NCBI GenBank assembly: GCA_963664815.2
Contig: CAXXHB010000003.1
Span: 2,560,001-2,624,000 of the forward strand
Source of the DNA: Spirochaetota bacterium
Lineage (GTDB): Bacteria > Spirochaetota > UBA4802 > UBA5550
DNA length: 64,000 nt
Direction: 5' to 3'
Made by a program: the position numbers and the translations under genes. Of this stretch, positions 1-13,441 are shown in pieces; positions within the stretch are counted from its first letter, which is position 1, and the number at the start of each line of letters is the position of its first letter. The notes beneath the pieces are model-generated. The model searched no databases, was not told the origin of the DNA, and saw nothing but the letters and a program-made list of their open reading frames with translations.

Positions 1-1
1 C

Positions 2-250
2 CTCCGTGGAGAAAAGACAGTACAGGAGTTGGCACAGAAGTATGAGATACACCCGAATCAGGTGACACTCTGGAAGAAGCAGTTAATTGAGAACGCAACT
101 ACCGCATTTGATAAACATGGTAATGACAAAGAATTAGATGATACTGAAAAGAAACAAGACGAACTTTACAGCCAGATAGGTCAGCTCAAAGTTGAGAATG
201 ATTTTTTAAAAAAAAAGTACAAGCAACTGTACGGGACAGAGCCGAAGTAG
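2..250 (+). CDS. IS3 transposase OrfA (5'-truncated by window edge)
   Basis: [31 protein letters not shown] and C-terminal [19 protein letters not shown], both typical of OrfA. Confidence 0.9.
202..217 (+). promoter_or_regulatory. -1 programmed ribosomal frameshift site
   Basis: TTTTTTAAAAAAAAAG (A AAA AAG) at the end of orfA; orfB lies in the -1 frame. Confidence 0.8.
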
Positions 251-264
251 TAGAGCCCGGACAT

Positions 265-1083
265 ATGAAACTATCAATTAAAGAACAATGTGCAATTCTC
301 GGCATAAGCCGTTCATCGTATTACTATAAGCCAGAATTGGCATTGAATGAAACCAATGTTGCAATATTGAAAGCTATCATGGAAGAATTAAAGCTTCATC
401 CGTTTTACGGATATAGGAAGATTACTATAGCCCTTAAGGACATGAGTGTCACAAGAAAGCAGATTAGGTTAATCATGAAAAAGGCCGGACTGCGGGCTAT
501 TTATCCCGGCAAACGCTTGTCAATACCAGTAAAGATGCATGAGAAATATCCATATCTCCTTCAAGATAAGAATATATGGCTTCCGAATCAGGTATGGGCG
601 ACAGACATTACGTACATTAAGCTTTCAGGAGGTCATGTATATCTAATTGCTATTCTTGATTTATTCAGCCGGAAGGTGCTTTCATGGAAACTGTCAAATA
701 CGCTGGATGCAGAATTTTGCGTATCGGCTCTTGAAGAAGCAATAATGACATATGGAACACCGGCGATTTTCAATACAGATCAGGGGAGCCAGTTTACATC
801 TGAGGCATTTACAGAAAAACTTAAGAGCCATGGGATAAGGATCAGTATGGATGGCAAAGGACGAGCTCTGGATAACATTTATATTGAACGGCTCTGGAGG
901 TCTCTCAAGTATGAAGAAATATATCTGAATGAATATCGCACCATGGAGAATTTAAAAGCAGCATTGAAAAGATATTTTGATTTTTATAATACTGAAAGAT
1001 TTCACCAGTCACTGGAGTATGCCACACCGGATAAAATATATTATTCGTCATTTAAAGAACAATGTCAGGAAGAAGCAGCTTGA
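265..1083 (+). CDS. IS3 transposase OrfB (rve integrase core)
   Basis: PNQVWATDITYI, IFNTDQGSQFTS and DNIYIERLWRSLKYE DDE motifs. Confidence 0.95.
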   Translation: MKLSIKEQCAILGISRSSYYYKPELALNETNVAILKAIMEELKLHPFYGYRKITIALKDMSVTRKQIRLIMKKAGLRAIYPGKRLSIPVKMHEKYPYLLQDKNIWLPNQVWATDITYIKLSGGHVYLIAILDLFSRKVLSWKLSNTLDAEFCVSALEEAIMTYGTPAIFNTDQGSQFTSEAFTEKLKSHGIRISMDGKGRALDNIYIERLWRSLKYEEIYLNEYRTMENLKAALKRYFDFYNTERFHQSLEYATPDKIYYSSFKEQCQEEAA

Positions 1084-1317
1084 AGGCCTGGAGAGATACA
1101 CCAAAACATTTTAAAATCATGTATTGACAAAAGGGCTCACCTTATAGTATTAAATTTTACATTTTCCATTATCAACCTTCGCTCTATTTTAATTTTAGTA
1201 TATTAAAAAATTTCATATTACTTTTGTAACTCTGACTCAGGTGATACAACATCTATTATCTTTAAAAATTCTAATCTTTTCCCGGCATGGAAGCCGGGTG
1301 TAAATTTTATGCGTCTA

Positions 1318-1702
1318 ATCTGTCAGGTCAGGGAGCCCGTACCCCCTTTTCCCATAAGAACCGTACGTGAAAGTTTTACCACAGGCACTTCCTCCGGTCG
1401 CCCTTCTTACGGCTCAAGCCGTCTAAAGATGATTATACAACCAGCCGCTGTTAGCTGTTTTTATTCCCGTTTTTCTATATCAGAAATAATCAGAATCTTC
1501 TTTAAAAATGGGTTTCTGTCAAGACTTATCATTCTGTGCCGTACAATTTTAATGTGTCCCGCAGTAAAGAGAATCTCCTCATCAGAGCTGAAATTTTAAG
1601 TCCCTGTTTCCTATGTGTTTTAAAGTACCTGTTTTTAAGCTATAAAGAATTTTTCATCGGGTGTCTGAATCTGCCCCATCTCCATAGAGCCTGAAAAGAA
1701 CA
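1318..1702 (-). pseudogene. Group II intron 3' fragment, copy 1 (decayed maturase C-terminus + domains V/VI)
   Basis: Minus strand translates as FQALWRWGRFRHPMKNSL*LKNRYF...HIKIVRHRMISLDRNPFLKEDSDYF*. DV GAGCCGTA...CACGTACGGTTC at 1358-1415 carries a loop insertion. DVI ends ...CCTGACAGAT. Confidence 0.85.
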
Positions 1703-1713
1703 TAGGGGATGGT

Positions 1714-1820
1714 GTTTAACTGAAATTTTAACTGTAAGTATGCAGCCGGTTCAGCTCTGCTGATTGGCGCGGCTCTTGCTCTTTACCGCAAGGGGCGTGA
1801 CAAAGGCGGAGCATTGAATT
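1714..1820 (-). repeat. Degenerate attC remnant
   Basis: Minus strand CCGCCTTTGTCACGCCCCTTGC...GCAAGAGCCGCGCCAA...GTTAAAC lies downstream of a cassette-like gene. The core is repeated at 2535-2580. No R'' box found. Confidence 0.55.
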
Positions 1821-1875
1821 ATTTTTTATTATCAAAACACTCTGATTTAAATGAGAAAATTATAAGAAGATTTAT

Positions 1876-2142
1876 CTAACTATCCATATCTTCCTCCTGA
1901 GTTCCGAAAAGAAGAACTATTCTTTCATCACATGATGTCAGTATCGGTTTAAATCCATCTGCCAGCGAAATGGCTTTCATGCGTGCATCTCTTATAATAT
2001 AATCAAAAGCCATAATTTCATCATTATGGATTGTATTTAAATCCCTTAATCCATTTAATGCAAATGATAGTACACAAAATGCCGACATTATATCATTCAG
2101 TTTTTTTTCAACATCATCGGTTTTAAATGCATGTATCTCCAT
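1876..2142 (-). CDS. Hypothetical protein
   Basis: 88-aa ORF divergent from an XRE regulator; no motif recognised. Confidence 0.5.
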   Translation of the reverse strand: MEIHAFKTDDVEKKLNDIMSAFCVLSFALNGLRDLNTIHNDEIMAFDYIIRDARMKAISLADGFKPILTSCDERIVLLFGTQEEDMDS

Positions 2143-2165
2143 TATTATAACCCCGTTATAAATAT

Positions 2166-2182
2166 TATCCTAATTTGGGATA
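2166..2182. promoter_or_regulatory. Palindromic operator candidate
   Basis: TATCCTAATTTGGGATA near-perfect palindrome between the divergent genes, just upstream of the XRE gene. Confidence 0.5.
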
Positions 2183-2209
2183 TTCTAAAACAGGATTTAT
2201 TATATACAA

Positions 2210-2431
2210 GTGAAAAATTCAATTTATACAAAAGAATATCAGGCTTTTTTACAGGTACTCAAGCAGGCCCGTATTGAAGCGGGGCTGACCCAGTCGGATG
2301 TTGCAAAGAAATTAAAACAGCACCAGTCATACGTTTCCAAATGCGAATCAGGAGAACGGCGTGTTGATGTTGTTGAACTTAAAAAATTTGCCTCTTTATA
2401 CGGGAAAAAGATCAGTGATTTTGTTGAATAA
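2210..2431 (+). CDS. XRE-family helix-turn-helix regulator
   Basis: LKQARIEAGLTQSDVAKKLKQHQSYVSKCESGERRVDVVEL, HTH_3 pattern. Confidence 0.9.
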   Translation: MKNSIYTKEYQAFLQVLKQARIEAGLTQSDVAKKLKQHQSYVSKCESGERRVDVVELKKFASLYGKKISDFVE

Positions 2432-2534
2432 ATGTCCTGAACAAAGCCTGAATATTGTGTAAGTTAAATAAAATTAAAGAAACCATAAAATAGAACTCTA
2501 CAAGTAAAGCTCTTTAAGCTTTGTTTATTGCATA

Positions 2535-2580
2535 GACCTTGCTCGTTTCCGCAAGGGGTGTGACAAAGGTGGAACTGTGA
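2535..2580 (-). repeat. Degenerate attC remnant
   Basis: CTTGCTCGTTTCCGCAAGGGGTGTGACAAAGGTGGA, a direct repeat of 1775-1810, lies just after the stop of the 2595 gene. Confidence 0.5.
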
Positions 2581-2594
2581 AAAAAATTGAAGAA

Positions 2595-3353
2595 TTACTT
2601 CAACAAAAATTCAAGAATCTTCTTACCACCTTCAGTATTTCTTGAAAGATGAGCACCCCGAGTTTCTGAACCGGAATAAACAACAATATTTTTATGTTTC
2701 GGTAGATTCCACATTGAAGCTTTTCGTGTTAATATAATACATGCTTCACCATTACGAACCTTTGGTACAAGATAGTCATTAACCCATTCAAGCATTATTT
2801 GAGATGTATAAAGTTGATTTAATTTTTTGTCAGATAATTTAAAAGATTTTGAATGATAAGGAACCAATTCTAATGCGGCAATATTCTTGGAAACAAAACT
2901 CAATGATTCAGCATAAGAAGGAAGATTTTTCTTTATTTTTACTTCGTCAATAATATCGTTCAATTTGCTTACCCAATATTTACCATGCCAGATAAACTTT
3001 GGATTTAATTTGAAAAAAGGATATGGATCATTTTCTAACTCTTGTTTTATGTTTTTAATCATATATTCTTTGAACAATTTATCATTTGATTCAGCATAGT
3101 AATCTAATATATTAAATCCCGGATTTAAAAGCAGTATAAATACTTTGGCATTTTTTAAATCACCGATATAGGGGACTGGTAACAGACCGAAATGAAATTT
3201 ATGATCTTTTGAACCAAAATCAGAACTATTTATAAATTCATCATAATTTGTATAATTAAAGAAATCTTCACTTCTTAATACATCGTCTTTTTGATGAAGA
3301 TAAGGTTTTCTGTTAAGATTAAAATTCTTCCAGCAACTCAGTAAATCTTCCAT
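2595..3353 (-). CDS. Uracil-DNA-glycosylase-superfamily protein (Brig1-like candidate)
   Basis: LLPVPYIGDLKNAKVFILLLNPG and LELVPYHS motifs. Likely true start is MEDLL at 3353, because the track's 3410 start lies inside the IS inverted repeat. Confidence 0.6.
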   Translation of the reverse strand: MEDLLSCWKNFNLNRKPYLHQKDDVLRSEDFFNYTNYDEFINSSDFGSKDHKFHFGLLPVPYIGDLKNAKVFILLLNPGFNILDYYAESNDKLFKEYMIKNIKQELENDPYPFFKLNPKFIWHGKYWVSKLNDIIDEVKIKKNLPSYAESLSFVSKNIAALELVPYHSKSFKLSDKKLNQLYTSQIMLEWVNDYLVPKVRNGEACIILTRKASMWNLPKHKNIVVYSGSETRGAHLSRNTEGGKKILEFLLK

Positions 3354-3384
3354 ACATTGCTCACTAAAATGAATTAAACTAATA

Positions 3385-4698
3385 ACTCGAGTTAGGCGTT
3401 TTTTGGACATAGCTACGCCATGAGTTTTAGTTTTTTATAAATGTCCCTCTTGGAGACACCCTTTTTATGCATTATAATCACTTGATCAACGTACTCCCGC
3501 TTCTTCATTATTTTGAAATACTGTCGAGATTTCCCAAGACTCTGTTCATTGTTAGCAACTCTCAATGATTCAAGTAAAGCATACGCAGCAAATACAAGAG
3601 CACAGTATTTTTCTATTGCCTTCAGTTTCCTCATCTGGTATTGACTCATACCAAGACGATCTTTACAATAAAGATATCCAACTTCAATATCCCAGCGAAA
3701 GCTGTAATATTTCAAGATGCCTTCATTATTCAAGTTCATATCCGTACTAAGGATGAACATTATAGATCCGTCCTTGACTCTCTTTGATATCAGTATAATT
3801 GCATTACCGATACCTTTCAGCCAGACTTCTATCCGTCTGACTTTGAAGGCTTCATCCTTTAATTTTACTTTCTCAAAGGATGAGTTTCTTAAGTTTTTCA
3901 CATAAGCTGACAGCTTATGTTTTTTACCATGCTCTTTAAACTGGAATACTCTATTGCTCTTAAGCGCTCCTATAAGTTCAAATTCCCGGTCTTTTACAGC
4001 TTTTACGACTTTCTCCGATGTGTACCAGCTATCTACTAAACAGTATATCTTATCTCCCGTAAAAGGTTCAAACTTATCTATCAATTCACATGCTATATCC
4101 GGTTTTGTTTTAAATACTTCTCCGGATTCAGTTGCCACTTTCTCATTTAGATAAAACCGGAAATCATATGGGAAAGATATATCCCCTGATCTATAATGAC
4201 TTGTCACCAAGCTGTGACCATATACCGTTCTGCCTTTTGAATGAGAATAATGCCACCCGAGACTTTCTATCTTCTTCGGTTTTCCCGGCTTCTCTATCAC
4301 AGTATCATCTATTATTAAAAAGCCTGTCCCGTTTTTCTTAGCGATACATTTTAAAAAATTCCTGTTAACTCTTAAAAGATCTTTACAGGTCCAAGCTGTA
4401 TCTCTTATAAACTTTATATCATTACTAACATCTCTTGTGTCAACCTGAATGGAGTTGATACTTGAGATTGTATGACGACCATCATATTCTATTATCCCTT
4501 TCAGCATCTTAGTAAAATGCCTCATTTGCGGTTTTGAAAAAATTTCTTTCGCCGCTGTAAAATACTTGTCTTCTGTAATCTGTTGTTTATTTTTTTATTC
4601 ATTAGAGTTTTTAAAATACTATTCATAATGGGGTAAAAAATTAATACTATTTTTTGCCCCATTATCTTTTTTCTTTTAAAAAAACGCCTAACTCAAGT
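3385..4698 (-). mobile_element. IS701-like insertion sequence
   Basis: 20-bp terminal IRs (ACTCGAGTTAGGCGTTTTTT / AAAAAACGCCTAACTCAAGT, 1 mismatch) flanked by an AATA duplication at 3381-3384 and 4699-4702. Confidence 0.85.
3413..4525 (-). CDS. IS701-like DDE transposase
   Basis: LIIDDTVIEKP, LVDSWY and YSFRWDIEVGYLYCKDRLG motifs. Confidence 0.9.
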   Translation of the reverse strand: MRHFTKMLKGIIEYDGRHTISSINSIQVDTRDVSNDIKFIRDTAWTCKDLLRVNRNFLKCIAKKNGTGFLIIDDTVIEKPGKPKKIESLGWHYSHSKGRTVYGHSLVTSHYRSGDISFPYDFRFYLNEKVATESGEVFKTKPDIACELIDKFEPFTGDKIYCLVDSWYTSEKVVKAVKDREFELIGALKSNRVFQFKEHGKKHKLSAYVKNLRNSSFEKVKLKDEAFKVRRIEVWLKGIGNAIILISKRVKDGSIMFILSTDMNLNNEGILKYYSFRWDIEVGYLYCKDRLGMSQYQMRKLKAIEKYCALVFAAYALLESLRVANNEQSLGKSRQYFKIMKKREYVDQVIIMHKKGVSKRDIYKKLKLMA

Positions 4699-4869
4699 AA
4701 TAATCTAAAAATTGTTTAAAGTATATCAATTAAAATAACTATAACACCTTTCAGATTTTTGAATAAATTGCAGATCAAAGTCAATAATTTATTCAAAAGC
4801 AATATTTTATATTTAACGTGCCTGCTGAGATATAAGCTGGCATGTTTTATTAAATATATCTGCAGCAGA

Positions 4870-5149
4870 AAAAATTATTTTACAGAATTATTATTTTCCC
4901 CGGTAAAATCACCGGATTTTTACTGTATGTTGTTTCAAAGAACGGAAGAAAACGGTATTCAAATTCCTGTTATGACTATTCTGAGTATAATCGAAGCATA
5001 TTCTGCCCGATTCCAGTGGTTTCGTACAACAAAAGTCTTAACATAGCCGCTGTCTGAAGATTAAAATTATCTGCTTAATATTTTTATACCGCTAATAAAG
5101 ACCAGCGGTTTTTTTGGGGCAGCTACGTTAAGACATCTATAAGTTATGT
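4870..5149 (+). repeat. attI-like region B1 (copy of 6390-6647)
   Basis: Ends GTTAAGACATCTATAA-GTTATGT (GTTRRRY core 5143-5149) with an internal inverted repeat GTCTTAACATAGC at ~5035. Similarity to copy B2 stops at the core. Confidence 0.55.
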
Positions 5150-5197
5150 GCAGTTCAACACGCTAACTAAAAAATATTTATTCAAACATTGAATGAA

Positions 5198-5866
5198 TTA
5201 ATTTTGAAATAATAATCTATTCTGAATTAATCTACCAAGTTCTGAACTCAACTTTTCAAAGTTTCTATCAAAATCTGATTTTGCAACATTATTTATAACT
5301 TCGTTATTACTAGTAATAATGAACCGATAAACAGTAAGAGTACTTTTTAAGAATTCTGAGATTTCATTGATTTTTAGATCTAAATTTTCAGGCAAGAAAA
5401 TTCTGTTATTATCATATGTATTAATAAAATCAAAACACGATTGTTGTAACACAAACATTCCGTTTGTTCTTGTAATATTTATATATTCTTGCATTTTATT
5501 TTCTGATTGAATAATCATATTTTTTTCAAACAAGCTAAAAGGAGTTTTTGCTAAAATATCACTAAGTTCTTCATCAGTAAGTGTGTCCATGTCTAATGCA
5601 AGGAAATAATTATTAGTATAGAATTGAAGATTTCTTTTATGAATTTGTAGCTTACTCCAGATAATGGGTAGAACTTCGAATTCGCGTTGATTTATTTTAG
5701 AAATACGATCAAATTCAAGGTTTATTTTTTGTTTATATTTCTCAATACTTTTGTTGAATTGCGATTCAATAAATTTATTTCCAAAATATTTAGATAATCC
5801 TATGAATAAAAGTATGGCCGAACCAACCGAAGTAGATGTTGTAATAAAAAATGTCTTTATATCCAT
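5198..5866 (-). CDS. Hypothetical cassette protein with N-terminal membrane helix
   Basis: 222-aa very AT-rich ORF with GGAG RBS, bounded by the inverted repeat TTCAACACGCT / AGCGTGTTGAA. Confidence 0.75.
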   Translation of the reverse strand: MDIKTFFITTSTSVGSAILLFIGLSKYFGNKFIESQFNKSIEKYKQKINLEFDRISKINQREFEVLPIIWSKLQIHKRNLQFYTNNYFLALDMDTLTDEELSDILAKTPFSLFEKNMIIQSENKMQEYINITRTNGMFVLQQSCFDFINTYDNNRIFLPENLDLKINEISEFLKSTLTVYRFIITSNNEVINNVAKSDFDRNFEKLSSELGRLIQNRLLFQN

Positions 5867-5931
5867 AGTTTCTCCTATTAAAAAGATTACTGTTTATATA
5901 AAACGTCGAACGAAAAGTCCAGCGTGTTGAA

Positions 5932-6292
5932 GTCTGGTAGGTCAGGAAGTTCACGCCCCCTTTCCCGTAAGAACCGTACGTGAATGTTCCCCTTCGTACG
6001 GCTCAAGCTGTCTTAAGCTTTCTATACAACCAGCTGCTGTTAGCTGTTTTTATTCCCGTTTTTCGATATCAGAAATAATCAGAATATTCTTTTAAAATGT
6101 GTTCCTGTCAAGACTTATCATTTTGTGCTTTACAATTTTAATGTGTCGCACAGTATTAAGAATCTCCTCATCAGAGCAGAAAGTTTAAGTCCCTGTTACC
6201 TATGTGTTTTAAAGTACCTGTTTTTAAGCTATAAAGAATTTTTCATCGGGTGTCTGAATCTGCCCCATCTCCATAGAGCCTGAAAAAGAACA
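5932..6292 (-). pseudogene. Group II intron 3' fragment, copy 2
   Basis: Intact 34-nt DV GAGCCGTACGAAGGGGAACATTCACGTACGGTTC (5971-6004, AGC triad), DVI ending CTACCAGAC, and decayed maturase VLFQALWRWGRFRHP... Confidence 0.9.
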
Positions 6293-6389
6293 GTATTGGA
6301 ATTTTTAAAAGGATTCCTTTTAAAACCATTCCCCGGAGCTTTTGAGACGTTGAATAAAATCGCCATTCACGGTCTATCCGTTGACTGGA

Positions 6390-6647
6390 GAAATAATTAT
6401 TTTATGTGATTTTTATTTTTTCCGGTAAAATCACCGGATTTTTACTGTATGTTATTTCAAAGACCGGTAGAAAACGGTATTCAAAATCCTATTCTATTTA
6501 TACTGTTCGATCCCCGTGGTTTCGTCCAACAGAGTCTTAACATAGTTGTTGTCTGAAGATTGAAATTATCTGTTTAATGTTTTTATACCGCTAATAAAGA
6601 TTAGCGGTTTTTTGAGGCAACTACGTTAAGACTTCTATAAGTTATAT
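6390..6647 (+). repeat. attI-like region B2 (copy of 4870-5149)
   Basis: Ends GTTAAGACTTCTATAA-GTTATAT (core 6641-6647) with internal IR AGTCTTAACATAGTTG / CAACTACGTTAAGACT. Confidence 0.55.
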
Positions 6648-6713
6648 GACGTTGCACCACCTTTTTATTCTCAAGCGAAACACGATGTTGAGCTTGAATC
6701 ATTTTTTTAAGTC

Positions 6714-7562
6714 CTACCGATATGTCGAATTTGAAAAAGTTATTTTCGTATTATTTAATCCATTTTTTCTTAGATACATTTCAAAATCATATTGCTCAAG
6801 CTTATATTTTGGTCCAAGAACAATCTCTGGTATAAGATTGCTATTAATAGGTTCATCAAATTTTAACTTAAAATAGGAAATAATATCATTATTACATGTC
6901 CTAAAAAAAATGTCAGAAATATTTACATGTAAAAAAATATTTAATAGTAATTCAAGAGTGGGGGTATGAATTATTCGCCATTCTTGTTCATCATAAAATG
7001 TATGATTTTTAAAAATGACAGAATACCGTCTTAATAATATAGCGCATTCTAAACTCGCTAAGTTTTCATCAATAGTTTGTTCATCTAACTGTAATAAATA
7101 ATGTTGCAGGATTCCTGATATAATATTTTTTTGTTCATCAATCTCATATAGTACTGGTTGAAGACCAATGTTATCTTTTTTTGTAATACTAGTCGTTGTT
7201 ATAGGTGACTTTACATCAACATTTAATGCTTCTGTTGAAAATCCTATAGCTACACCCAAACCATCATCAGCATAACTTTTCCATTGACTCAAAACATCAC
7301 CGTTTCCGGAAAAACATGCAATATATGGAATGGAATTATTTATATTGTATGTTTGAACCATTAATGAAATAAAATTTTTATATTTGTCATCAGAAATTTC
7401 TTTAATTTTATCATCTATTAAATGATTAATCCAAATAGTTTCATGATGGTCATTCATCTTTTTACTGTTTGATAACCAGATTTCTTTTGATTGAATGATC
7501 ATAAATAACTTTTCAATGCTACAATAATGATAAATTATTTTTGGTATTTCCATTTTAACCAT
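6714..7562 (-). CDS. DUF2971-domain cassette protein
   Basis: IYHYCS, LSNSKKMND, ACFSGNGDVLSQWKSYADDGLGVAIGF and KNHTFYDEQEWR motifs. Confidence 0.85.
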   Translation of the reverse strand: MVKMEIPKIIYHYCSIEKLFMIIQSKEIWLSNSKKMNDHHETIWINHLIDDKIKEISDDKYKNFISLMVQTYNINNSIPYIACFSGNGDVLSQWKSYADDGLGVAIGFSTEALNVDVKSPITTTSITKKDNIGLQPVLYEIDEQKNIISGILQHYLLQLDEQTIDENLASLECAILLRRYSVIFKNHTFYDEQEWRIIHTPTLELLLNIFLHVNISDIFFRTCNNDIISYFKLKFDEPINSNLIPEIVLGPKYKLEQYDFEMYLRKNGLNNTKITFSNSTYR

Positions 7563-7622
7563 CTGTTTTTTATAATCTATGAGCCCACGGATGGGCGATT
7601 AAAAAGTTTTCACGCTTTTTGC

Positions 7623-7721
7623 ATATAACGCCTTGCTTACACGACGTTGCGGCTGTCTTTTGCCGCAATGTGCCGAAGGCCAAGCCGGTACTCCGGCGCA
7701 GCGTTGTAAGCGTTGTTAGGT
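7623..7721 (-). other. Integron attC recombination site (99 bp)
   Basis: Minus strand R'' ACCTAAC, L'' TTACAACG, palindromic core, L' CGTGTAA, R' GTTATAT. Lies between a gene stop (7735) and the next gene start (7562). R'' matches the core at 9573-9579. Confidence 0.9.
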
Positions 7722-7734
7722 GTAGTGCTCGAAA

Positions 7735-8931
7735 TTACAACGAAAGAATTGCTTTTTCAAGTAATTCAATGCTGTTTATTATTTTATTACACATATCATA
7801 GAATTGTTTTACATGATTTGTATTTGTTATTGTTTCTTTTGAAATTTTGTGATCAGCCTCAGTACGGTAAGTTTTGATAGTATTAATATTTTCTACAAGG
7901 TTAATATTAAATTCCAATTTGTTCTCTAAAAGCTGTAACAATTGTATTGAACTTAATGGACGTTTTGTTTTAGAATGGATGAACTCATATTCTGAATAGT
8001 TAAATTTCTCTTTAAGAAATATTTTTAATGATTCACTATCAATATTATCTGGTCCAATAATTTTATATAATTCTGAACAACTATCACAAAAGGCTTTTTT
8101 TGTATTTTCAACAGGTGGTCGTAAATAAATGTTTTCAAATATTTTAAAAAGTGGTTTTATTGAAAAATATATATTTAAATTTTTTAATTTTTCTTTTAAT
8201 ATTTCAAAAATATCAGGAAAATCGACATATTCACCATCGTATGTTCTGGAGAGGAATAATTTAAAATTAGTATCATTTGGATCTAAAATAAAATCATTTA
8301 ACTCAAATGAACTCCAATATTTTTGCTCATCATGACTCATTGATTCTAAATCTTTTACAATTACTGATATGGCAGTATTACCATTATTTATTAATTTTTT
8401 CCCAAATCTTATATAAAGATAATTTGTATCTATAGAATCTCCAATGGATGCTATGGAACCACCTGCTAATGAATCATTAACTTCATATTTTTCCGGATGA
8501 TTATAATATCTTCTTAAAACTTCTTCCTTAAAAAATATTAATTCAATTTGATTTGCACCAAGATATAATCTTTTTGCATATTCAGGAATATTTTGTTTTA
8601 CTAAATCAGAGGAATAAAAGAATTGTTCTAAAACAGATTTTGAAGGGAAAAATATATGTGTTTTTATTTTTTTGCCTTGAGGAGATTTTCTTTTTGAACC
8701 AACTTTTATTGAAACAGAATATAATGTAACATTACTATTTATTTTGCCTTTACCTTCTGAAACAAATTTTTCAAATAATTTCATTGCTTCATTGTTGCTT
8801 ATCTTAAAGTATTTATCAAGTTCAATTGCTGATATACCACCGAAACGGTTAAACCAGATTTCTGCACATTTTTTAAGTATTTCATCTTCTGTAATATTAT
8901 AATCCAAAATGCTTTCCTTCAATTGTTGCAA
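7735..8931 (-). CDS. Hypothetical cassette protein with C-terminal RxxxxH (HEPN-like) motif
   Basis: 398 aa; helical C-terminus contains YRTEADH. Confidence 0.7.
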   Translation of the reverse strand: MQQLKESILDYNITEDEILKKCAEIWFNRFGGISAIELDKYFKISNNEAMKLFEKFVSEGKGKINSNVTLYSVSIKVGSKRKSPQGKKIKTHIFFPSKSVLEQFFYSSDLVKQNIPEYAKRLYLGANQIELIFFKEEVLRRYYNHPEKYEVNDSLAGGSIASIGDSIDTNYLYIRFGKKLINNGNTAISVIVKDLESMSHDEQKYWSSFELNDFILDPNDTNFKLFLSRTYDGEYVDFPDIFEILKEKLKNLNIYFSIKPLFKIFENIYLRPPVENTKKAFCDSCSELYKIIGPDNIDSESLKIFLKEKFNYSEYEFIHSKTKRPLSSIQLLQLLENKLEFNINLVENINTIKTYRTEADHKISKETITNTNHVKQFYDMCNKIINSIELLEKAILSL

Positions 8932-8946
8932 TTAACTTTTATAGTA

Positions 8947-9522
8947 TTAAATAAAGGTTAGAAACCTATCTATAAATGGCTGTAGGTATGCTTCTAATAT
9001 TCTTCTTGCGAAAAAATCATGCATCATTTTGAAATTATCAACATCCTTATCAAAATCATCTTGCTTCAAATCTTCAAGTTTTAAAGCTTTAAGAGCATCT
9101 TTATGATTTGCAATGGAACAAACGTTTCCGGAAACTAATTCCTTAAATAAATTATACATTATTTTGTGTTTTGAAATTTCGTCATTTTTAGTATCATTTC
9201 TGTTATCTTCTGGATTTATTAAATTTAATATATTTTCATAAAAAACGATTACCTTTAATACATCTAACCAGTCATAGTAAATCTCAATACCGTATCTATT
9301 CTTAATTTCAAATTTAAATAAAAATATAGAATATTTTCTAATATCATAATCTTTCCAGTATTTTTCTTTAGCAATCCTTATCTTTTCATCAAGTGTATCT
9401 TCAAATAATTGTTTGTATTCATAAGAGAAAAATTCTTTTAGTAAATCTATTAACTCCAGTTCATCCTTAATGTTTAGTAATTTTGTTGTAGCTTTTTTAG
9501 TTTCTTCGATAGATGTTATCAT
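8947..9522 (-). CDS. Hypothetical cassette protein
   Basis: 191 aa with AGGAG RBS; first gene after the attI-like site. Confidence 0.75.
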   Translation of the reverse strand: MITSIEETKKATTKLLNIKDELELIDLLKEFFSYEYKQLFEDTLDEKIRIAKEKYWKDYDIRKYSIFLFKFEIKNRYGIEIYYDWLDVLKVIVFYENILNLINPEDNRNDTKNDEISKHKIMYNLFKELVSGNVCSIANHKDALKALKLEDLKQDDFDKDVDNFKMMHDFFARRILEAYLQPFIDRFLTFI

Positions 9523-9572
9523 TTTCCACTCCTAGTAACATTACTATAATCAAAAAGTTTTTCGAGCATTAC

Positions 9573-9651
9573 ACCTAACTTGTACTATCCGAACAATCTT
9601 TCGCACAACACATGAAAAATCCGGAAAAAAGCGAAAGAAGTTACGTATAGT
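9573..9651 (-). other. attI-like site A (start of cassette array)
   Basis: Minus strand GTTCGGATAGTACAA-GTTAGGT core with an upstream inverted partner ACTATACGTAAC and no attC-style hairpin. The first ~20 bp after the core are complementary to 7715-7734. Confidence 0.65.
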
Positions 9652-10414
9652 AACCCCTATATATCCAGTGGACTCTTAATATTCCCGGGTTTCACCGTAC
9701 ATACATGTGTATAAATCATAATTGTATCAGGACTTTACCGTCCTGATAGTTCCTGTATTTTTCGTTACTCTTTTCAGGCAGTTGTGTAGAAAATTTATCA
9801 CTTGATGAGTCATCTTTAACCGTTTTCCGTCCCGGCATTTACAACATCCCGTTGAAACCAGTCCGCACAAACATCCCCTGTTGTTACTCCCCTTCTCCTG
9901 ATCTTTTAATAAACGGTTTCCATGATGCACTCTGCCGGATGGGTCTGTATGCATTTAATTTATTCACTCATTAAACAGCAGTTATTTCAATACTTTTTTT
10001 CAAATATTCAAATAAATATTAGGCTTGTTTCCAAACCAGTATTTGCAACACTCAGGAAACCTTGAGTGGTTTTTTTTAAGGGGCTCCTCCCCTTATACAC
10101 TGTAAAAAAGTTGTCTCTTTTTTATAAAGAACGGTAATTACTTTGTTGAATTGGCTGCTTTGCAATAAAAACATATGATGTGTTATTTGCACAAATCGTG
10201 CCGGAAACTGAAGTACACTTCAGTGATTATACCCCATCTGTCGCCATGTATATGCCTTTTATCCGCCACGAATCCGCCATCTATCCGGCGAAGTAACAGA
10301 AAAATTTTTTTGTTTTTTCAGTAAATTTTTTTAAATTCCCCTGTTTCAGGCGTATTAATGTCAAGCAGGGATGCCCGGTGGGGGCATTATAAGGCGCTCT
10401 CAGATAATTCACAC

Positions 10415-10850
10415 CAGTTTCGGAACCGCCTCTTCAGGTTTCTTTAACCACACCGCTCCCCGAGTGTTTCCAGTAAAACTGGAAATGTATCGAGGGGATC
10501 ACTACTGGAAAACTGTTTTCTTAAAATATATTAATAATATCATTCGTCTGAACACGATTACAGGATTAAAGGATTACAGGATTTTGGTTCATGTGCTCTT
10601 TGTTGAGCTCTTTGATGCTGTCCGTAATGTAATATTATCGATATGCCAAGGTCAACTCATGGACAGCTTCTCCCGGTATCTTAAACCACACCGTTCCCCG
10701 AGTGTTTCCAGTGAAACTGGAAATGTATCGAGGGGATCACTACTGGAAAACTTTTTTCTTAAAACTTATTAATATTATCAATATACCCGTGTCAGCTCCG
10801 GAACCACCTTTTCCGGTTTCTTTAGCCACACCACTCTCCTGGTTTTTTAA
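10415..10850. repeat. ~125-bp direct repeat (2 full + 1 partial) containing a REP-like hairpin
   Basis: CCCCGAGTGTTTCCAGT(A/G)AAACTGGAAATGTATCGAGGGG at ~10458 and ~10696 with shared flanks; partial copy from 10793. Confidence 0.85.
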
Positions 10851-11038
10851 GTGAAACCGTAAATGCTTTATCCTCCCCTCGCCATATGGTGAGGGTCCGG
10901 GGTGAGGTCTGCATCGTGCATCAACTGGTTCAGATTCAAATTCACTGCAGATTTATGACAAAATCCCGACTCTGTTTACAGAGTATTGAGTTTCGCTTAC
11001 ATTTCGTCTCAATTACGCCTCAAACACGTTACATACAG

Positions 11039-11578
11039 CTATAAACGCGCGTTTTTCTCTGTCGGTAACGGAGTTGAAACGGTATTGAAACGATTTTCAG
11101 CAGGGTCTACATACTGCTTAAATCCCGTTTTAATAGCTGTACCTCTGTCTTTTACTGCATTAATATTATTCTGCCCATCTGCTGATTTTCTGTTTTCTGA
11201 ATGATAACAGGTATATTCTGTAACTCTACTGGAAGAAGATACAACAACGGCATCCCCTGTTCCTCCGCTTCCCGATGGTGTTACAGGTGAACCTGGTGCA
11301 ATGCCGCGAAGGTATTCAGACATAAAAAGGTTGTACCCCGACTTTTTCTTCCTCTTTGCCCTGTTTCTGTAGAGAGCCTTCTCCTCCTCCGGAAGCACCT
11401 GCCAGGCCTTAACACCGCCGCCGAAATTACCCCTGCACTTCACCTGCGGTTCAGTTCGCGGATTAGCCGGGATTGTCCGTGCTTTAATGTAGATTTTACC
11501 ATAGCGCCTGTAAAACACAAGACCATCCAGACCTCCATGCGCAGTTCTTAAATAGGGATGAAGCTTAACTTTTGCCAT
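11039..11578 (-). CDS. Small basic protein, DUF6266-like N-terminus with low-complexity tail
   Basis: GGLDGLVFY...PANPRTEPQ...R.NF...WQVLPEEEKALY...SGYNLFMSEY; AGGAG RBS. Confidence 0.65.
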   Translation of the reverse strand: MAKVKLHPYLRTAHGGLDGLVFYRRYGKIYIKARTIPANPRTEPQVKCRGNFGGGVKAWQVLPEEEKALYRNRAKRKKKSGYNLFMSEYLRGIAPGSPVTPSGSGGTGDAVVVSSSSRVTEYTCYHSENRKSADGQNNINAVKDRGTAIKTGFKQYVDPAENRFNTVSTPLPTEKNARL

Positions 11579-11737
11579 GAATTTACACTCCTTTATTGCT
11601 GTTATATCTTATCATTATTTATATAGAAACTTATGTCTCTAATAACCAGTGCGGAAAAACAAATGACATGGCGCAAGCAGAATTTTTAAAAAATTTTATA
11701 TGTTAAAATATGTTTTGTTTTGCCCCCTTCGGGGGTA

Positions 11738-13441
11738 GCATGTTGAATAATAAAAATTCAAAACAGGAAGTATGAATTTTCTATAAATTTTTATTATACT
11801 TTCTAATTATTCAAATATTTTACTTCGACTTCATATACATCGCATAAACCATCCACGACATCTTCTCACGCTACTGCAGATTGAATTCCAACCCATCCTA
11901 TATCCGCTACTGCCTTCTGAAGTTTTTTCAGGTTATATGTAATGCCGGCCAGAATCGATATAGTATTACATTTCTTTCGTCCCCGCCAATTCAAACGGCT
12001 CAGACCATTGTTGAATTTCAAGTCAAAGAAATTGTGTTCTTTTCCAATACGCCTGTTATATTTATACTTCCATTCTTCGCTTTGCATTCGATCTCTATAT
12101 TTGAACCAGAGTTCTTTGTTATCAACATAGGTTTTTGATACCGTAAAGACTCTGCTCTTATTTCTATCCTTATCTTTCCAGCATGATGAATAATGCTCAC
12201 ATCCTACACAAAAATTACGGCTCAATGTGAATTTGTACTTATTGTCAGATTTTTCTAATCTCCCCTTTTTCTTACGTTTACCTTTGCAGAAAAAATATAC
12301 TCCATCTTCTTCTTGTTGTACATGATGTTCTCCCTTTATAAACCAGCTCTCTGTAAAATGTAATGGGGGTGCTATATATAAATCTTTACCTTCCTGAATT
12401 AATTCACTCATCTGTGTAATGTTGAAATAACCTTTGTCTAATAAATACTCACTTTCACATTTAACTGCATTGCTTTCTTTAGCAACTTCTACTTTTTCTA
12501 CCATATCTGAAAGCAGGCTTATATCGCTTTCTTTAGATGTGGCCTCTATTGAAAGAAGTATGTCGTTGCTGCAAAATGCCGCCTGCACGTTATATCCCTG
12601 AATATAGCTTTCATCCTTTTTAAGAAGCTTACTCTCACTATCGGTTAAGTTCACTTTTGTTTCAGGTGTGATTCTTTCCTCTTTGACCTCATCCTCATAT
12701 GACTTTATTTTCATCATGATCTGGTCATATTTATTTTTCTGCTTTTCTATCAGATCTTTCTCTTTATTTAATTCTTCTTCGCTTATTTCGTCCTTATCTT
12801 TTAACTCTGATATGTATTTTGCTCTCGCTAAAAGTTTCGCGGATAGGTTCTCATAATGTTTTAGCTTCTTATCGAAACCTTCCTTGTCTCGTGTAAATTC
12901 TTTACTGGCATTACTGCTTATCTTTGTACCGTCTATCATTATTCTGCGCCAGTCTATCAGATTTAATTCTTCAAGTATATATAATAAACGGGCAAAGATA
13001 ACTGGAATCTGATCTGGAAAATCGTTAAGAAAACGGCAAAGTGTCGAATAATCTATTGATCTGCCGCCGCTTAAAAATAAAAATCCGGGATGATTGCGAT
13101 TAAGCATTCTCTCGATCTTTCTCATCGACTCTATCCCCTGGCTTAATCCATATAAAATTACTTTCAATTTTGCCGAGGGCTCTATCGCCTTTTGCCCTAC
13201 CGTATCATTCTTATATTTTTTATCAAATGGTTTTGTATCAACATATTCATCTATGAATCTATCAATTACCTTCTCTATTGAATTATCATCAAATATTTCT
13301 TCCGGATATATTGTTAAAAAATATCCTTGCCCCCTCTCTATAGGTTTATACTTTGCCATGTATAATCTCCATACCTTTGATATTTTCATCATGGTTTATA
13401 ATTTCCTGCCTGTCAATTAATACTTTGATTAATCAACAGGC
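11738..13441 (-). mobile_element. IS1182-family insertion sequence
   Basis: Terminal IRs GCATGTTGAATAA (11738) and TTAATCAACAGGC (13441) enclose a single transposase. Confidence 0.8.
11866..13359 (-). CDS. IS1182-family transposase
   Basis: DUF772-like N-terminus (SMRKIER...DYSTLCRF), IDGTKISSNAS, TDSES, GYNVQ, LDKGY and EHNFFDLK motifs. Start MAKYK at 13359 is likely. Confidence 0.9.
   Translation of the reverse strand: MAKYKPIERGQGYFLTIYPEEIFDDNSIEKVIDRFIDEYVDTKPFDKKYKNDTVGQKAIEPSAKLKVILYGLSQGIESMRKIERMLNRNHPGFLFLSGGRSIDYSTLCRFLNDFPDQIPVIFARLLYILEELNLIDWRRIMIDGTKISSNASKEFTRDKEGFDKKLKHYENLSAKLLARAKYISELKDKDEISEEELNKEKDLIEKQKNKYDQIMMKIKSYEDEVKEERITPETKVNLTDSESKLLKKDESYIQGYNVQAAFCSNDILLSIEATSKESDISLLSDMVEKVEVAKESNAVKCESEYLLDKGYFNITQMSELIQEGKDLYIAPPLHFTESWFIKGEHHVQQEEDGVYFFCKGKRKKKGRLEKSDNKYKFTLSRNFCVGCEHYSSCWKDKDRNKSRVFTVSKTYVDNKELWFKYRDRMQSEEWKYKYNRRIGKEHNFFDLKFNNGLSRLNWRGRKKCNTISILAGITYNLKKLQKAVADIGWVGIQSAVA

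Follow-up and report, generated by a model that had tools for sequence, protein, structure and literature searches.

The window, the whole 64,000-nucleotide stretch of contig CAXXHB010000003.1 from a Spirochaetota bacterium that was analysed, carries a cassette array whose ORFs lie on the minus strand. The head of this array is an attI-like junction (9552..9640, −; caaG|TTAGGTG, with the G opposite 9569), which is followed by a platform common to other arrays (9576-11706) and shares a 17-bp inverted repeat with 7722-7738. A GC-rich G-type attC in cassette orientation lies at 7619..7730 (−) and has fold z-scores of −2.10 and −3.38; sites of this type are too diverse for counting by BLAST. No match to the integron-integrase model TIGR02249 above its cut-off was found in the genome, and the nearest integrase candidate, a protein of 357 aa, is without the stretch matching IntI4 residues 182-240.

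The attC position between two cassettes is occupied at 5932-6641 by a composite that we call unit B. The first-pass annotation had described here a repeated unit standing in place of attC sites, and the repeat is real: 1401-1697 matches 5990-6286 with 92% identity, and the right-half matches have 85% (4867-4983 with 6389-6505) and 87-90% identity (5034-5155 with 6533-6653). Unit B and the split copy A, to which these matches belong, are part of a family of 54 BLAST pieces in ~8 cassette arrays of the genome. Contiguous copies with both halves linked number 10 and lie in 5 arrays spread over 2.3 Mb; the fusion takes the attC position at ~10 cassette junctions, and further broken forms are present elsewhere in the genome. 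Promoter-like matches in the unit stayed at chance level (8 found, 8.3 expected).

When positions are given in the 1370-nt long form of the unit (LONG coordinates), unit B aligns to LONG 1-414 and 1065-1370, and the halves of copy A align to LONG 3-387 and 1122-1370. The left half of copy A is an intron 3' fragment (1318..1702, −; domains V-VI at 1417..1322) with an attC-like core, cttacaGTTAAAAT, ~29 nt upstream of it in the intron sense, and the right half (4867..5143, +) is a remnant of the IS91-2 3' untranslated region with a U-type site, whose G5143|TT is joined to the R'' of the cassette at 5198-5866. The DNA between them (1703..4866) has small ORFs, of 88 aa and, for an HTH_3 protein, 73 aa; an ORF of 271 aa that is split by a DDE insertion sequence (~3385-4700, with its transposase at 3413-4525); and two occurrences of a 40-nt motif (1766-1812 and 2537-2575). 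Copy A had been taken for a second copy of the unit, and its halves are indeed homologous with an IS between them, but the end points of the halves differ from those of unit B and it is not simply the unit plus an insertion.

The left half of unit B is a group II intron remnant in cassette orientation. Domains V-VI lie at 6006..5932 (−), with an RF00029 score of 41.5 bits (gathering 40), and the intron part ends with the 3' splice site, the last intron base pairing with G5932; in copy A the corresponding match (1417..1322, −) scores 33 bits, under gathering. The earlier reading of the left edge as the exact intron 3' end is borne out by these matches. Next to domains V-VI, 6007..6331 (−) holds the 3' side of domain IV and a degenerate remnant of the intron-encoded protein (C-terminal ~95 aa, residues at least 389 of 484, with stop codons). 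What is kept of the intron is its last ~420 nt, truncated in unit B on the 5' side at about residue 389 of a full-length relative, and tblastn with the protein of this relative found residues 395-468 only in unit B and residues from 389 onward in every genome copy. There was no match to the D1-D4 families of the intron at E ≤ 5 in 1-11000 and no RF02012 match in the genome, and the 5' part of the relative had no BLAST match in the genome, domains I-III being absent from all copies. The unit is non-coding and lacks the ribozyme core, so that it cannot splice or move by itself. The sole full-length intron found here (C3:3194618-~3196452) was rejected as the source, since it has no similarity to the unit and is located in the middle of an attC. 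We also rejected the possibility that 5932-6649 is a complete ORF-less intron, because it has no 5' GUGYG and no D1-D4, and its right half belongs to an IS91 element.

The full-length relative (G084, another genus) has 72% nucleotide identity to the remnant over 418 nt and 74% amino acid identity to the protein remnant, with an RF00029 score of 65.3 bits, an RF02012 score of 59.3 bits and a 484-aa intron-encoded protein. The best match of this protein is PDB 6me0_C (E 1.1e-150), which we take to be a group IIB intron entry, and the chain named GsI-IIC RT follows at 7.6e-30; the assignment of the intron half to the group IIB type is supported only indirectly. The intron sits cassette-sense 11 nt after the G|TT of an attC, its 5' exon ending GTTGTACACCA|GTGCGAC, and the R'' of the downstream cassette is GTACAAC. 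A search of the phylum (401 genomes) found two more full-length relatives with 48-53% identity, in which this homing site was not seen; one has a different 5' exon and the second has no GUGYG within the stretch examined.

The same spacing is found at the left edge of unit B. The segment 5921..5931 (−), which reads TTCAACACGCT on the minus strand and corresponds to the intron 3' exon, is the first 11 nt retained of the downstream cassette, and the first 10 nt of that cassette (TTATGTGCAG) are absent. It forms an 11/11 inverted repeat with 5154-5164, which adjoins GTTATGTGCAG at 5143-5153. Among the left ends in the genome, an inverted-repeat partner exactly 11 nt past a GTTRNRY core was found in 5 of 19, the rule being testable in those 5 only, while control offsets gave none at 5-10 and 13-17 and one at 12. 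The left edge of the unit thus reads as a genuine intron homing junction, 11 nt past the expected G|TT of the next cassette, although the intact homing site at +11 is known from one close full-length relative.

The right half of the unit lies on the opposite strand. It comprises a decayed IS91-2 3' untranslated region (6332..6523, +), from which the Y2 transposase fragment of the long form is deleted, and a U-type terminal site (6524..6641, +). In the long form, the untranslated region is contiguous with a Y2_Tnp fragment on the strand opposite to the intron (PF04986, E 4.7e-24), which covers the C-terminal 190 aa only (profile positions 77-180 of 183). The Y2 transposase gene is absent from unit B, and relatives have full genes. 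Full-length IS91-2 relatives (G016:C418, whose 381-aa Y2 has 68% identity, and a MAG contig of 2.6 kb) start with TTGAAC and a hairpin and end with the same palindrome followed by G|TTRNRY. Their U site stands after the Y2 gene on the Y2 strand, and in addition to the Y2 transposase they encode a tyrosine recombinase of the IntI/Xer-like type. ISfinder lists an IS91 subgroup that has a recombinase gene. The right half of the unit is the 3' end of an IS91-family element with Y1 and Y2, opposite to the cassettes, and the term attI-like given to it in the first-pass annotation is not supported, since it ends in the terminal palindrome of this element and has no similarity to the array-head site. 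This outcome counts against an attI by the annotation's own check. The GTT spacing it was said to share with the site at 9573 is literally present, as GTT-N13-GTTATAT in the unit and GTT-N12-GTTAGGT on the minus strand at ~9569-9590, but no sequence similarity accompanies it: the local score between the right half and 9540-9760 was 12 against a shuffle mean of 10.9, and was reached in 86 of 300 shuffles.

The U site is an attC-like imperfect palindrome. Its boxes are GTCCAAC at 6524-6530, GTCTTAAC at 6534-6541 and GTTAAGAC at 6625-6632, with a terminator-like hairpin inside (6587-6608), the spacer ttctataa and G6641 of the G|TT. In 32 unique copies 85.1% of the cells were paired, compared with 23-43% for slid partners; 4 of 24 pairs were changed on both sides, and the fold z-scores were −4.27 (+ strand) and −4.91 (− strand). 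The U site points the opposite way from the cassette ORFs and from the G- and S-type sites, and U sites are dispersed within the arrays, uniformly inverted with respect to the cassettes and in some places alone between them. That such sites point against the array, with cassettes between convergent sites, was correctly noted; the TA cassette, for example, has a U site on one side and an S site on the other.

The right edge had been described as a GTT core fused to the R'' of the DUF2971 cassette, and this holds, with the G a little to the left of the positions first given: 6641 rather than 6647 in unit B, and 5143 rather than 5149 in copy A. The R'' box of the upstream DUF2971 cassette is joined directly to the unit (6641..6651, −; CATATAAC plus 3 nt). 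The flank 6641-6648, GTTATATG, which is the reverse complement of CATATAAC, is this R'', since it can pair with 7622-7629, where the DUF2971 cassette starts. Other genomic copies likewise end at GTT cores: among 27 right ends found by motif in the genome, with differing flanks, TTRNRY follows in 25, and GTTA or GTTG stands beside the palindrome in 25-26. There are no direct repeats at the unit flanks. In 9 of the 27, the 4 kb to the right contain an exact reverse-complement 8-mer (control mean 1.6, maximum 5 in 200 permutations), and the pairing of the right flank with the upstream cassette's start extends over 13/14 nt at 1967925 and over 21 bp at the TA cassette. With these pairings, the right edge is a crossover-type junction at G|TT, formed with the R'' of the cassette upstream, and the proposal that the two ends are junctions of different kinds, intron homing at +11 on the left and crossover-type on the right, agrees with both analyses. 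An inversion model, with proper-strand recombination between the U site and the attC, was discarded on the same pairing, which links the right flank to the upstream cassette and not to the lost first nucleotides of the downstream cassette.

Comparison of the copies suggests a common origin and recombination among them. A short copy at 3691790 is 97% identical to a long copy in both halves but only 88% identical to another short copy (S2545) and 88-93% to unit B; left-half and right-half identities among copies correlate only with r = 0.52. Further fusions were formed by microhomology. Most variant partners have the same junction as the long form together with its 4-nt deletion and are therefore derived from the long form rather than independent, and a recurrent breakpoint in the intron was rejected on this ground. 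Since all copies share one 5' truncation, a single ancestral fusion is indicated. The fusion was never seen in 40 relatives, which have the ~130-nt U site only; this site alone also occurs in related genera. Neither empty sites nor insertion polymorphism turned up, whether within the genome itself, among 63 relatives from the family or in four public sequencing runs. The four runs did contain contig joints with short sides (e.g., 5080 to 6581, side 27, one contig), which may be repeat artefacts. The genome has no full-length copy of either element, that is, an intron of the unit's lineage or IS91-2, and no site doubly occupied by a full-length intron and a full-length inverted IS91-2.

Our main interpretation, to which we give a probability of roughly 0.5, is that two mobile elements, each of which targets the recombination sites of the cassette arrays in this genome, make up the unit as a decayed composite. 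It takes as established the composition, the orientations, both junction rules and the single shared 5' truncation of the intron. A group II intron would have inserted in the sense of the cassettes, at a point 11 nt past the G of an attC G|TT on its downstream side, and an IS91-family element with Y1 and Y2 would have inserted opposite to the cassettes, the G|TT of its U site becoming joined to the upstream R''. A deletion between the two would have removed both 5' parts and the inner attC, and with them 10 nt from the start of the next cassette, giving one ancestral fusion that later came to lie at the attC position of ~10 junctions in five arrays. The right flank may have been shuffled by site-specific exchange at the G|TT of the U site, and homologous recombination and gene conversion could have carried the fusion into other attC sites already holding both elements. 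We favour, as an inference, spread by recombination and gene conversion among doubly occupied attC sites, without mobility of the fusion's own. This requires that many attC sites were once doubly occupied, whereas no such site and no full-length element is left, no empty site was found for any copy, the +11 rule could be tested in few left ends, the intact homing site comes from a single close full-length relative, and the genome encodes no integrase that passes TIGR02249.

Constant ends with variable flanks at ≥10 sites are also what a non-autonomous element mobilised in trans would produce. A lesser but real possibility is that the unit is a non-autonomous chimeric intron, with IS91-2 antisense in domain IV, that retrohomed in trans to many +11 sites; in a second step, recombination of the U site G|TT with the neighbouring R'' would have deleted the intron's domains on the 5' side as well as the inner attC and the 10 nt. 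One mechanism would then cover the +11 left junction and the R'' right junction, along with the uniform inversion of all U sites and the shared internal junctions, and the family does include an intact relative of the intron. However, domains I-III remain in no copy, a helper intron protein of this lineage is missing from the genome, and the attC would have to be used on the "wrong" strand at each of at least 10 sites; moreover, U sites and U-S composites without an intron piece exist in the genome, and relatives have U sites without an intron. Somewhat less probable still is a hybrid element that is mobile now or was so recently, with the intron end and the inverted attC-like site each handled by different machinery: the intron 3' end would be set by reverse splicing at +11, or be read as a Y2 termination end, and the inverted site would be joined to an R'' box by a tyrosine recombinase. 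We consider improbable a miniature IS91-type element moved by rolling circle, with the U site as oriIS and the domain VI hairpin plus GTCT as a surrogate terIS, which a Y2 transposase supplied in trans would insert beside 5'-GTTR. The ends do resemble those described for the family in PMC13181058 (subterminal palindromes, T at tetranucleotide position 2, no target duplication). The palindrome does adjoin GTTA or GTTG in nearly every copy, the left end of the unit is GTCT plus a hairpin in a family in which left ends are variable and the right end constant, and the genome has a full IS91 transposase gene (418 aa, NF033538 429.5 bits). Nevertheless, this sole intact transposase is only 24% identical to the fragment of the unit, all insertions are at full R'' boxes and not at a bare tetranucleotide, and the left junction is the intron's own homing position. 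A simple IS91 insertion, which would keep the flanks contiguous, is disfavoured by the replacement at +11, where the unit takes the place of the inner attC together with precisely 10 nt at the start of the next cassette.

Slightly more doubtful again is the idea that the U palindrome is the ordinary attC of the upstream cassette and the other ~600 nt the 5' leader of the next one. A minus-strand reading does give a variable R'' paired with the cassette start, an L''/L' pair and GTTGGAC as R', and U-type sites stand alone between cassettes. Yet every putative next cassette would then have identical first nucleotides (≥25 nt), the variability lies on the other side, the U spacers (3 versus 8 nt) have an asymmetry opposite to that of G (3 versus 5) and S (2 versus 5), and full-length elements have the site after the Y2 gene on the Y2 strand. 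It is very hard to believe that the halves are linked merely by local segmental duplication. Some copies do lie within larger duplications (e.g., 1378896-1379894/1383740-1384736 and 3686956-3687941/3692362-3693348), and the halves also occur independently in the genome, which limits the linkage proposed at the outset, but the 10 linked copies in five arrays over 2.3 Mb have differing flanks: when exact duplicates had been filtered out, the 250-nt flanks of 9 of 10 units had no other BLAST match.

The unit consists of known parts in a new combination. Integron arrays and CALINs contain group IIB introns and 5'-truncated intron fragments (UHB.I2, H.ha.F1 and H.ha.F2), as described in PMC7923331. 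In that account, as with our intron, which is probably also non-IIC, a non-IIC intron stands just after an attC in cassette sense, fragments are reduced to domains V-VI with a part of the gene for the intron protein, and ssDNA-dependent mobile elements cluster in arrays. The fragments described there differ from ours, which is fused to an IS91-family end, has ≥16 copies with one truncation, follows a defined +11 rule and replaces the attC together with the IS end. Group IIC-attC introns such as S.ma.I2 also home to the attC of cassette arrays, but those presented in PMC3001079 are class C, use the bottom strand and are antisense to the cassettes, whereas the intron of the unit is in the sense orientation, 11 nt past the crossover. 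In relation to IS91 and ISCR elements as characterised in PMC13181058, the relatives share the Y2 (HUH) transposase, the subterminal palindromes and the absence of target duplication; a tetranucleotide whose second base is T also adjoins the end that follows the transposase gene. They differ from that description by adding an IntI/Xer-like tyrosine recombinase, by sitting inside cassette arrays, and by starting with G|TTGAAC and ending with GTYCAAC-palindrome-G|TT, which is the form of an integron cassette (PMC13181058). The unit itself keeps the 3' remnant only. As in the attC of sedentary chromosomal integrons, the U site is an imperfect palindrome with inner and outer boxes, has variable sequence after G|TT and is a repeat conserved family-wide; unlike them it is inverted, ~130 nt long, has a terminator-like hairpin inside and a constant R''-like box GTYCAAC, and no integrase of the genome passes the integron-integrase model. 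Delta-attI-type cassettes (cf. PMC12901181) also have a non-attC sequence at the attC position, but these are attI remnants in mobile integrons, while the U site is unrelated to the attI-like region of the array.

If the units are debris only, the finding is mainly descriptive, illustrating the decay of sedentary arrays and advising caution with automatic attC and integron callers. If our main interpretation is true, a single attC would offer separate landing points to two unrelated elements, the intron at +11 and the IS91-type element at R'', with a defined homing rule for an attC-associated intron probably outside class C, and the wreckage of both could occupy the attC position at ~10 cassette junctions. 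This raises the questions of how mobile cassettes are when deprived of a correctly oriented attC, which enzyme acts on G|TT cores where the genome has no canonical integron integrase, and whether IS91-family elements that have an IntI/Xer-like recombinase travel as cassettes, through rolling-circle transposition, or in both ways. Should the hybrid element prove to be the right one, inverted sites replacing a proper attC would fix cassettes or make them invertible, and the IS91-family element with its recombinase partner would be a cassette-shaped bridge from HUH transposons to integrons.

A cassette array ends in the first ~9.6 kb of the window (C3:2560001–2624000), its remaining ~26 kb lying further left, outside the window. 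Because the array head lies at ~9569 (− strand, caaG|TTAGGTG) with a ~2-kb platform beyond it (9576–11706), the array reads leftward on the − strand. Four cassette ORFs on the − strand were recognised at 8947–9522, 7735–8931, 6714–7562 (DUF2971, E 2.6e-11) and 5198–5866, and an ordinary GC-rich attC (G-type) lies at 7619–7730. The cassettes have extended inverted repeats, in which the bases after the starting G|TT pair with the R'' box and a few bases past it, as seen over 17 bp for 9552–9569 with 7722–7738 and over 21 bp around a toxin-antitoxin-like cassette at C3:3692521–3693275 (C3, the contig of the window). The platform adjoins the head of this array and recurs beside six other arrays of the genome; this conserved platform contains a 179–181-aa ORF (11039–11578 here) with no Pfam match, and its 118-nt repeats (10425–10542 and 10663–10780) have a longer counterpart in a 141-nt tandem run at C3:1361056–1361997. 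An IS3-type element (orfA/orfB with an rve domain, 2–1083) bounds the region on the left, and a gene for a 508-aa DDE transposase (11866–13392) lies between the platform and the housekeeping genes on the right.

The first-pass annotation had described a repeated chimeric unit standing in place of an attC, composed of the 3' end of a dead group II intron and an inverted attI-like site. The repeated unit is real: unit B spans 5932 to G6641, and its split relative, copy A, consists of 1318–1702 and 4867–5143. Across the genome, 54 BLAST pieces of the unit fall into about eight clusters, with uniform orientation within each. The middle region of copy A contains a DDE insertion sequence (~3385–4700, transposase 3413–4525) with terminal inverted repeats around 3389–3405 and 4681–4697, which splits a 271-aa ORF at 2595–3410; two further copies of it, partial or complete, lie in the same array (C3:2535183–2535939 and 2547418–2548192). 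The same middle region has two copies (1766–1812 and 2537–2575) of a GC-rich hairpin motif of ~40 nt (..ccgcaagggg.gtgacaaagg.gga..), both following a small ORF; the Rfam match of this motif is weak and sub-threshold only.

The left edge of the unit is, as had been proposed, the 3' end of a group II intron on the − strand, with RF00029 scoring 41.5 bits at 6006..5932 and 33 bits in copy A at 1417..1322 (gathering score 40). Upstream of domain V, a 103-aa frame corresponds to the C-terminal part of an intron-encoded protein. All copies of this intron in the genome retain only protein residues numbered at least 389, and no domain I–III of it was found in the genome. A relative of the frame, 74% identical, lies in a complete intron of a related genome, G084 (484-aa protein; RF00029 65.3 bits, RF02012 59.3 bits), whose nucleotide similarity to the unit is limited to the last 418 nt (72%). 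The closest PDB entry to its protein is 6me0_C (E 1.1e-150), which we take to be a group IIB intron complex. The G084 intron is in cassette orientation; its 5' exon ends ...GCCAGGaacGTTGTACACCA|GTGCGAC, 11 nt past the G of an attC-like core, and the cassette behind it bears the matching R'' GTACAAC. In unit B, the left flank read on the − strand, TTCAACACGCT (5931..5921), pairs with 5154–5164, directly after GTTATGTGCAG (5143–5153), indicating that the first 10 nt of the cassette are gone and that the intron end sits at +11. When all 19 left ends were scanned, partners were found at offset 11 from a GTTRNRY core in five, at offset 12 in one, and at offsets 5–10 and 13–17 in none. The left junctions of the unit thus follow the rule seen for the G084 intron, with homing at +11 from the attC crossover. 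Outside the window, at C3:3194618–~3196452, another group II intron, full-length and distinct from this one, lies in cassette orientation in the middle of a GC-rich attC whose halves match window 7619–7730; its 413-aa protein scores 436.9 bits with TIGR04416 and its RNA 51.6 bits with RF00029.

The right half of the unit is not an attI; it represents the tail of an element of the IS91 family (IS91-2). The attI-like reading failed on direct comparison: the ~130-nt attC-like palindrome that ends the element (the U site) reached a local score of 12 against the array-head region, where shuffles averaged 10.9 and 86/300 of them reached 12. In longer, 1370-nt copies of the unit (reference C3:1966556–1967925), of which there are four, the 650 nt between the halves code, on the strand opposite to the intron, for the last 190 aa of a Y2 transposase, matching PF04986 at profile positions 77–180 of 183 (E 4.7e-24). 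In a full-length relative from the genome G016 (contig C418), a broken tyrosine recombinase gene stands before the gene of a 381-aa Y2 with 68% identity, and a 2.6-kb MAG contig carries a Y2 69.6% identical to that of G016. Both full-length relatives begin with TTGAAC followed by a hairpin, and their 3' end runs from a ~270-nt untranslated region through GT(C/T)CAAC, GTCTTAAC, a terminator-like hairpin, GTTAAGAC and a short spacer to G|TTRNRY. A second element of the same build is intact in the genome at C3:~3695085–3697540, encoding a 287-aa tyrosine recombinase and a 418-aa IS91 transposase (NF033538, 429.5 bits) and ending in a shorter terminal hairpin (S-type). Since it begins G|TTGAAC directly after an attC and ends GTCCAAC-hairpin-ttaacG|TTAGAC, this element is built like an integron cassette. 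The short S-type hairpin also occurs solo between other cassettes.

The U palindrome is conserved: in 32 unique copies from the genome and its relatives, 85.1% of cells paired versus 23–43% with slid partners, and 4/24 pairs were changed on both sides. Its folding was much stronger than that of shuffles, with z of −4.27 and −4.91. It points against the array, because it lies downstream of the Y2 gene on the + strand, because the constant box (GTCCAAC) stands at its left and the variable side at its right, and because its spacers (3 and 8 nt) show the asymmetry of G- and S-type sites only when read on the + strand. Among 40 relatives examined, 11 genomes matched the unit, nine of them with a U site; G034 had two short matches to the domain V–VI part and one further genome a 22-nt match only. 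The intron–IS91 fusion was absent from all 40; these short matches aside, only the ~130-nt U site was seen there.

The unit's right edge reads ...GTTAAGACTTCTATAAG|TT. Among 27 right ends found by a motif scan of the genome, TT came next in 26/27 and TTRNRY fitted in 25/27, and the flanks differed beyond. The 8 bases past the right junction are the reverse complement of the starting box of a cassette that lies to the right, which for unit B is CATATAAC at 7622–7629. Exact reverse-complement 8-mers were present within 4 kb for 9/27 right ends, versus 1.6 on average and at most 5 over 200 permutations in which the core of another copy was used. Behind 7/9 of these partner boxes, a site of the G-type, S-type or array-head kind could be recognised. 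Because the bases after the junction mirror the start box of the upstream cassette, the right edge is a junction with the R'' of that cassette, in agreement with the first-pass annotation.

Within unit B, a promoter-like TTGACA-17-AATATT on the − strand (6111..6083) faces the downstream cassette; its TTGACA is kept in five aligned copies, and such matches occur here at chance frequency. Three terminator-like hairpins lie on the opposite, + strand (6587–6608, 6421–6438 and 6031–6046); four were counted in the region versus 0.6 expected.

In coordinates of the 1370-nt form (LONG), the genome contains four long copies (LONG 1–1370, one without the last 55 nt), five short copies including unit B (LONG 1–414 + 1065–1370), one mini copy (LONG 3–201 + 1236–1370), four composites in which LONG 805–1370 is fused back to back with an S-type element tail, and about eight solo sites (LONG 1236–1370). 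There are also left parts, as in copy A, that 0.7–4 kb of other DNA separates from the U site behind them. Exact duplicates aside, the flanks of ten units occur nowhere else in the genome. The copies do not form clean lineages. The short copy 3691790 is 97% identical to the long copy 1966556 in both halves, versus 88% to another short copy, S2545, and 88–93% to unit B, and left-half and right-half identities among copies correlate with r = 0.52. Microhomology was found at other junctions, namely those of the S–U hybrid, of the mini copy, and of an IS91 untranslated region that meets the intron at nt 181. The unclean lineages and the microhomology junctions together indicate that the copies have often recombined, both homologously and illegitimately. 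In the last of these fusions, at C3:3201280–3201460, a 9-nt microhomology (ATTCTGAT.A) marks the switch from the S-type IS91 3' untranslated region (in intron sense) to the terminal 181 nt of the intron. Two arrays share a 1266-nt segment (98% identity; C3:2542329–2543594 and C3:3688024–3689289) beside the same S–U composite, but in opposite orientations; a ~75-nt motif containing GTTATATG lies at its boundary, and it looks like a site-associated inversion.

Composition, orientations, both junction rules and the single truncation of the intron are direct observations, and descent of all copies from one ancestral fusion is the most likely origin, given the shared intron truncation at residues of at least 389. 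The intron would once have resided at +11 of many cassettes, and the IS91-2 element would have been inverted at R'' boxes. In one attC holding both, a deletion may have connected the Y2 gene, cut in its middle, with the terminal part of the intron protein gene, taking out the inner attC and the 10 nt of the cassette. Exchange at the G|TT of the U site would have shuffled the right flank, and homologous recombination or conversion could have brought the fusion to further attC sites that held both elements. No doubly occupied attC or empty site survives to prove this history. Contigs of two wastewater metagenome runs (X6 and X7) carry the DUF2971 cassette (6684–7609) at about 99% identity, and because they differ left of 6684, 43 nt right of the edge of unit B, the cassette occurs in another context; the different DNA there spans 26 letters, too little flank to count as an empty site.

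If a crippled intron bearing the U site had retrohomed and a U-to-R'' deletion had followed at each site, the uniform inverted orientation of the U site would be elegantly accounted for, but this model requires a wrong-strand event at every copy, and not one copy has kept domain I–III. Rolling-circle movement using the intron end as a surrogate termination end fits the IS91-family end rules as given in PMC13181058; it predicts simple insertion, however, which conflicts with the replacement seen at +11. Spread of a single ancestral fusion by recombination and conversion is the reading we prefer. As for enzymes, no protein of the genome passes the integron-integrase model. Between its platform and its cassettes, the array at 1.97 Mb carries an IntI-like recombinase of 357 aa. 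The best solved relative of this protein is IntI4 (2a3v, E 1e-44), but it lacks the stretch matching IntI4 residues 182–240; among its paralogues the IS91 recombinase is the nearest, with 36.5% identity over 274 aa.

We rate the intron–IS91 fusion as known parts in a new combination. PMC7923331 already describes both a IIB intron in cassette orientation directly after an attC and 5'-truncated IIB fragments in an integrase-less array, and the IS91 end structure is likewise known from PMC13181058. Class C introns in attC sites are antisense according to PMC3001079, whereas the G084 relative of the unit's intron is in cassette orientation. In the literature searched, no report was found of a repeated intron-tail and IS91-tail fusion replacing attC, or of IS91-family elements bounded by integron-type cores.

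For the cassettes, the fusion may have two consequences. The R'' of the DUF2971 cassette is joined to the inverted site and a properly oriented attC is lacking, so that cassettes of this type should resist the usual excision. The convergent sites could also invert the DNA between them, as the 1266-nt segment present in both orientations in two arrays may illustrate.
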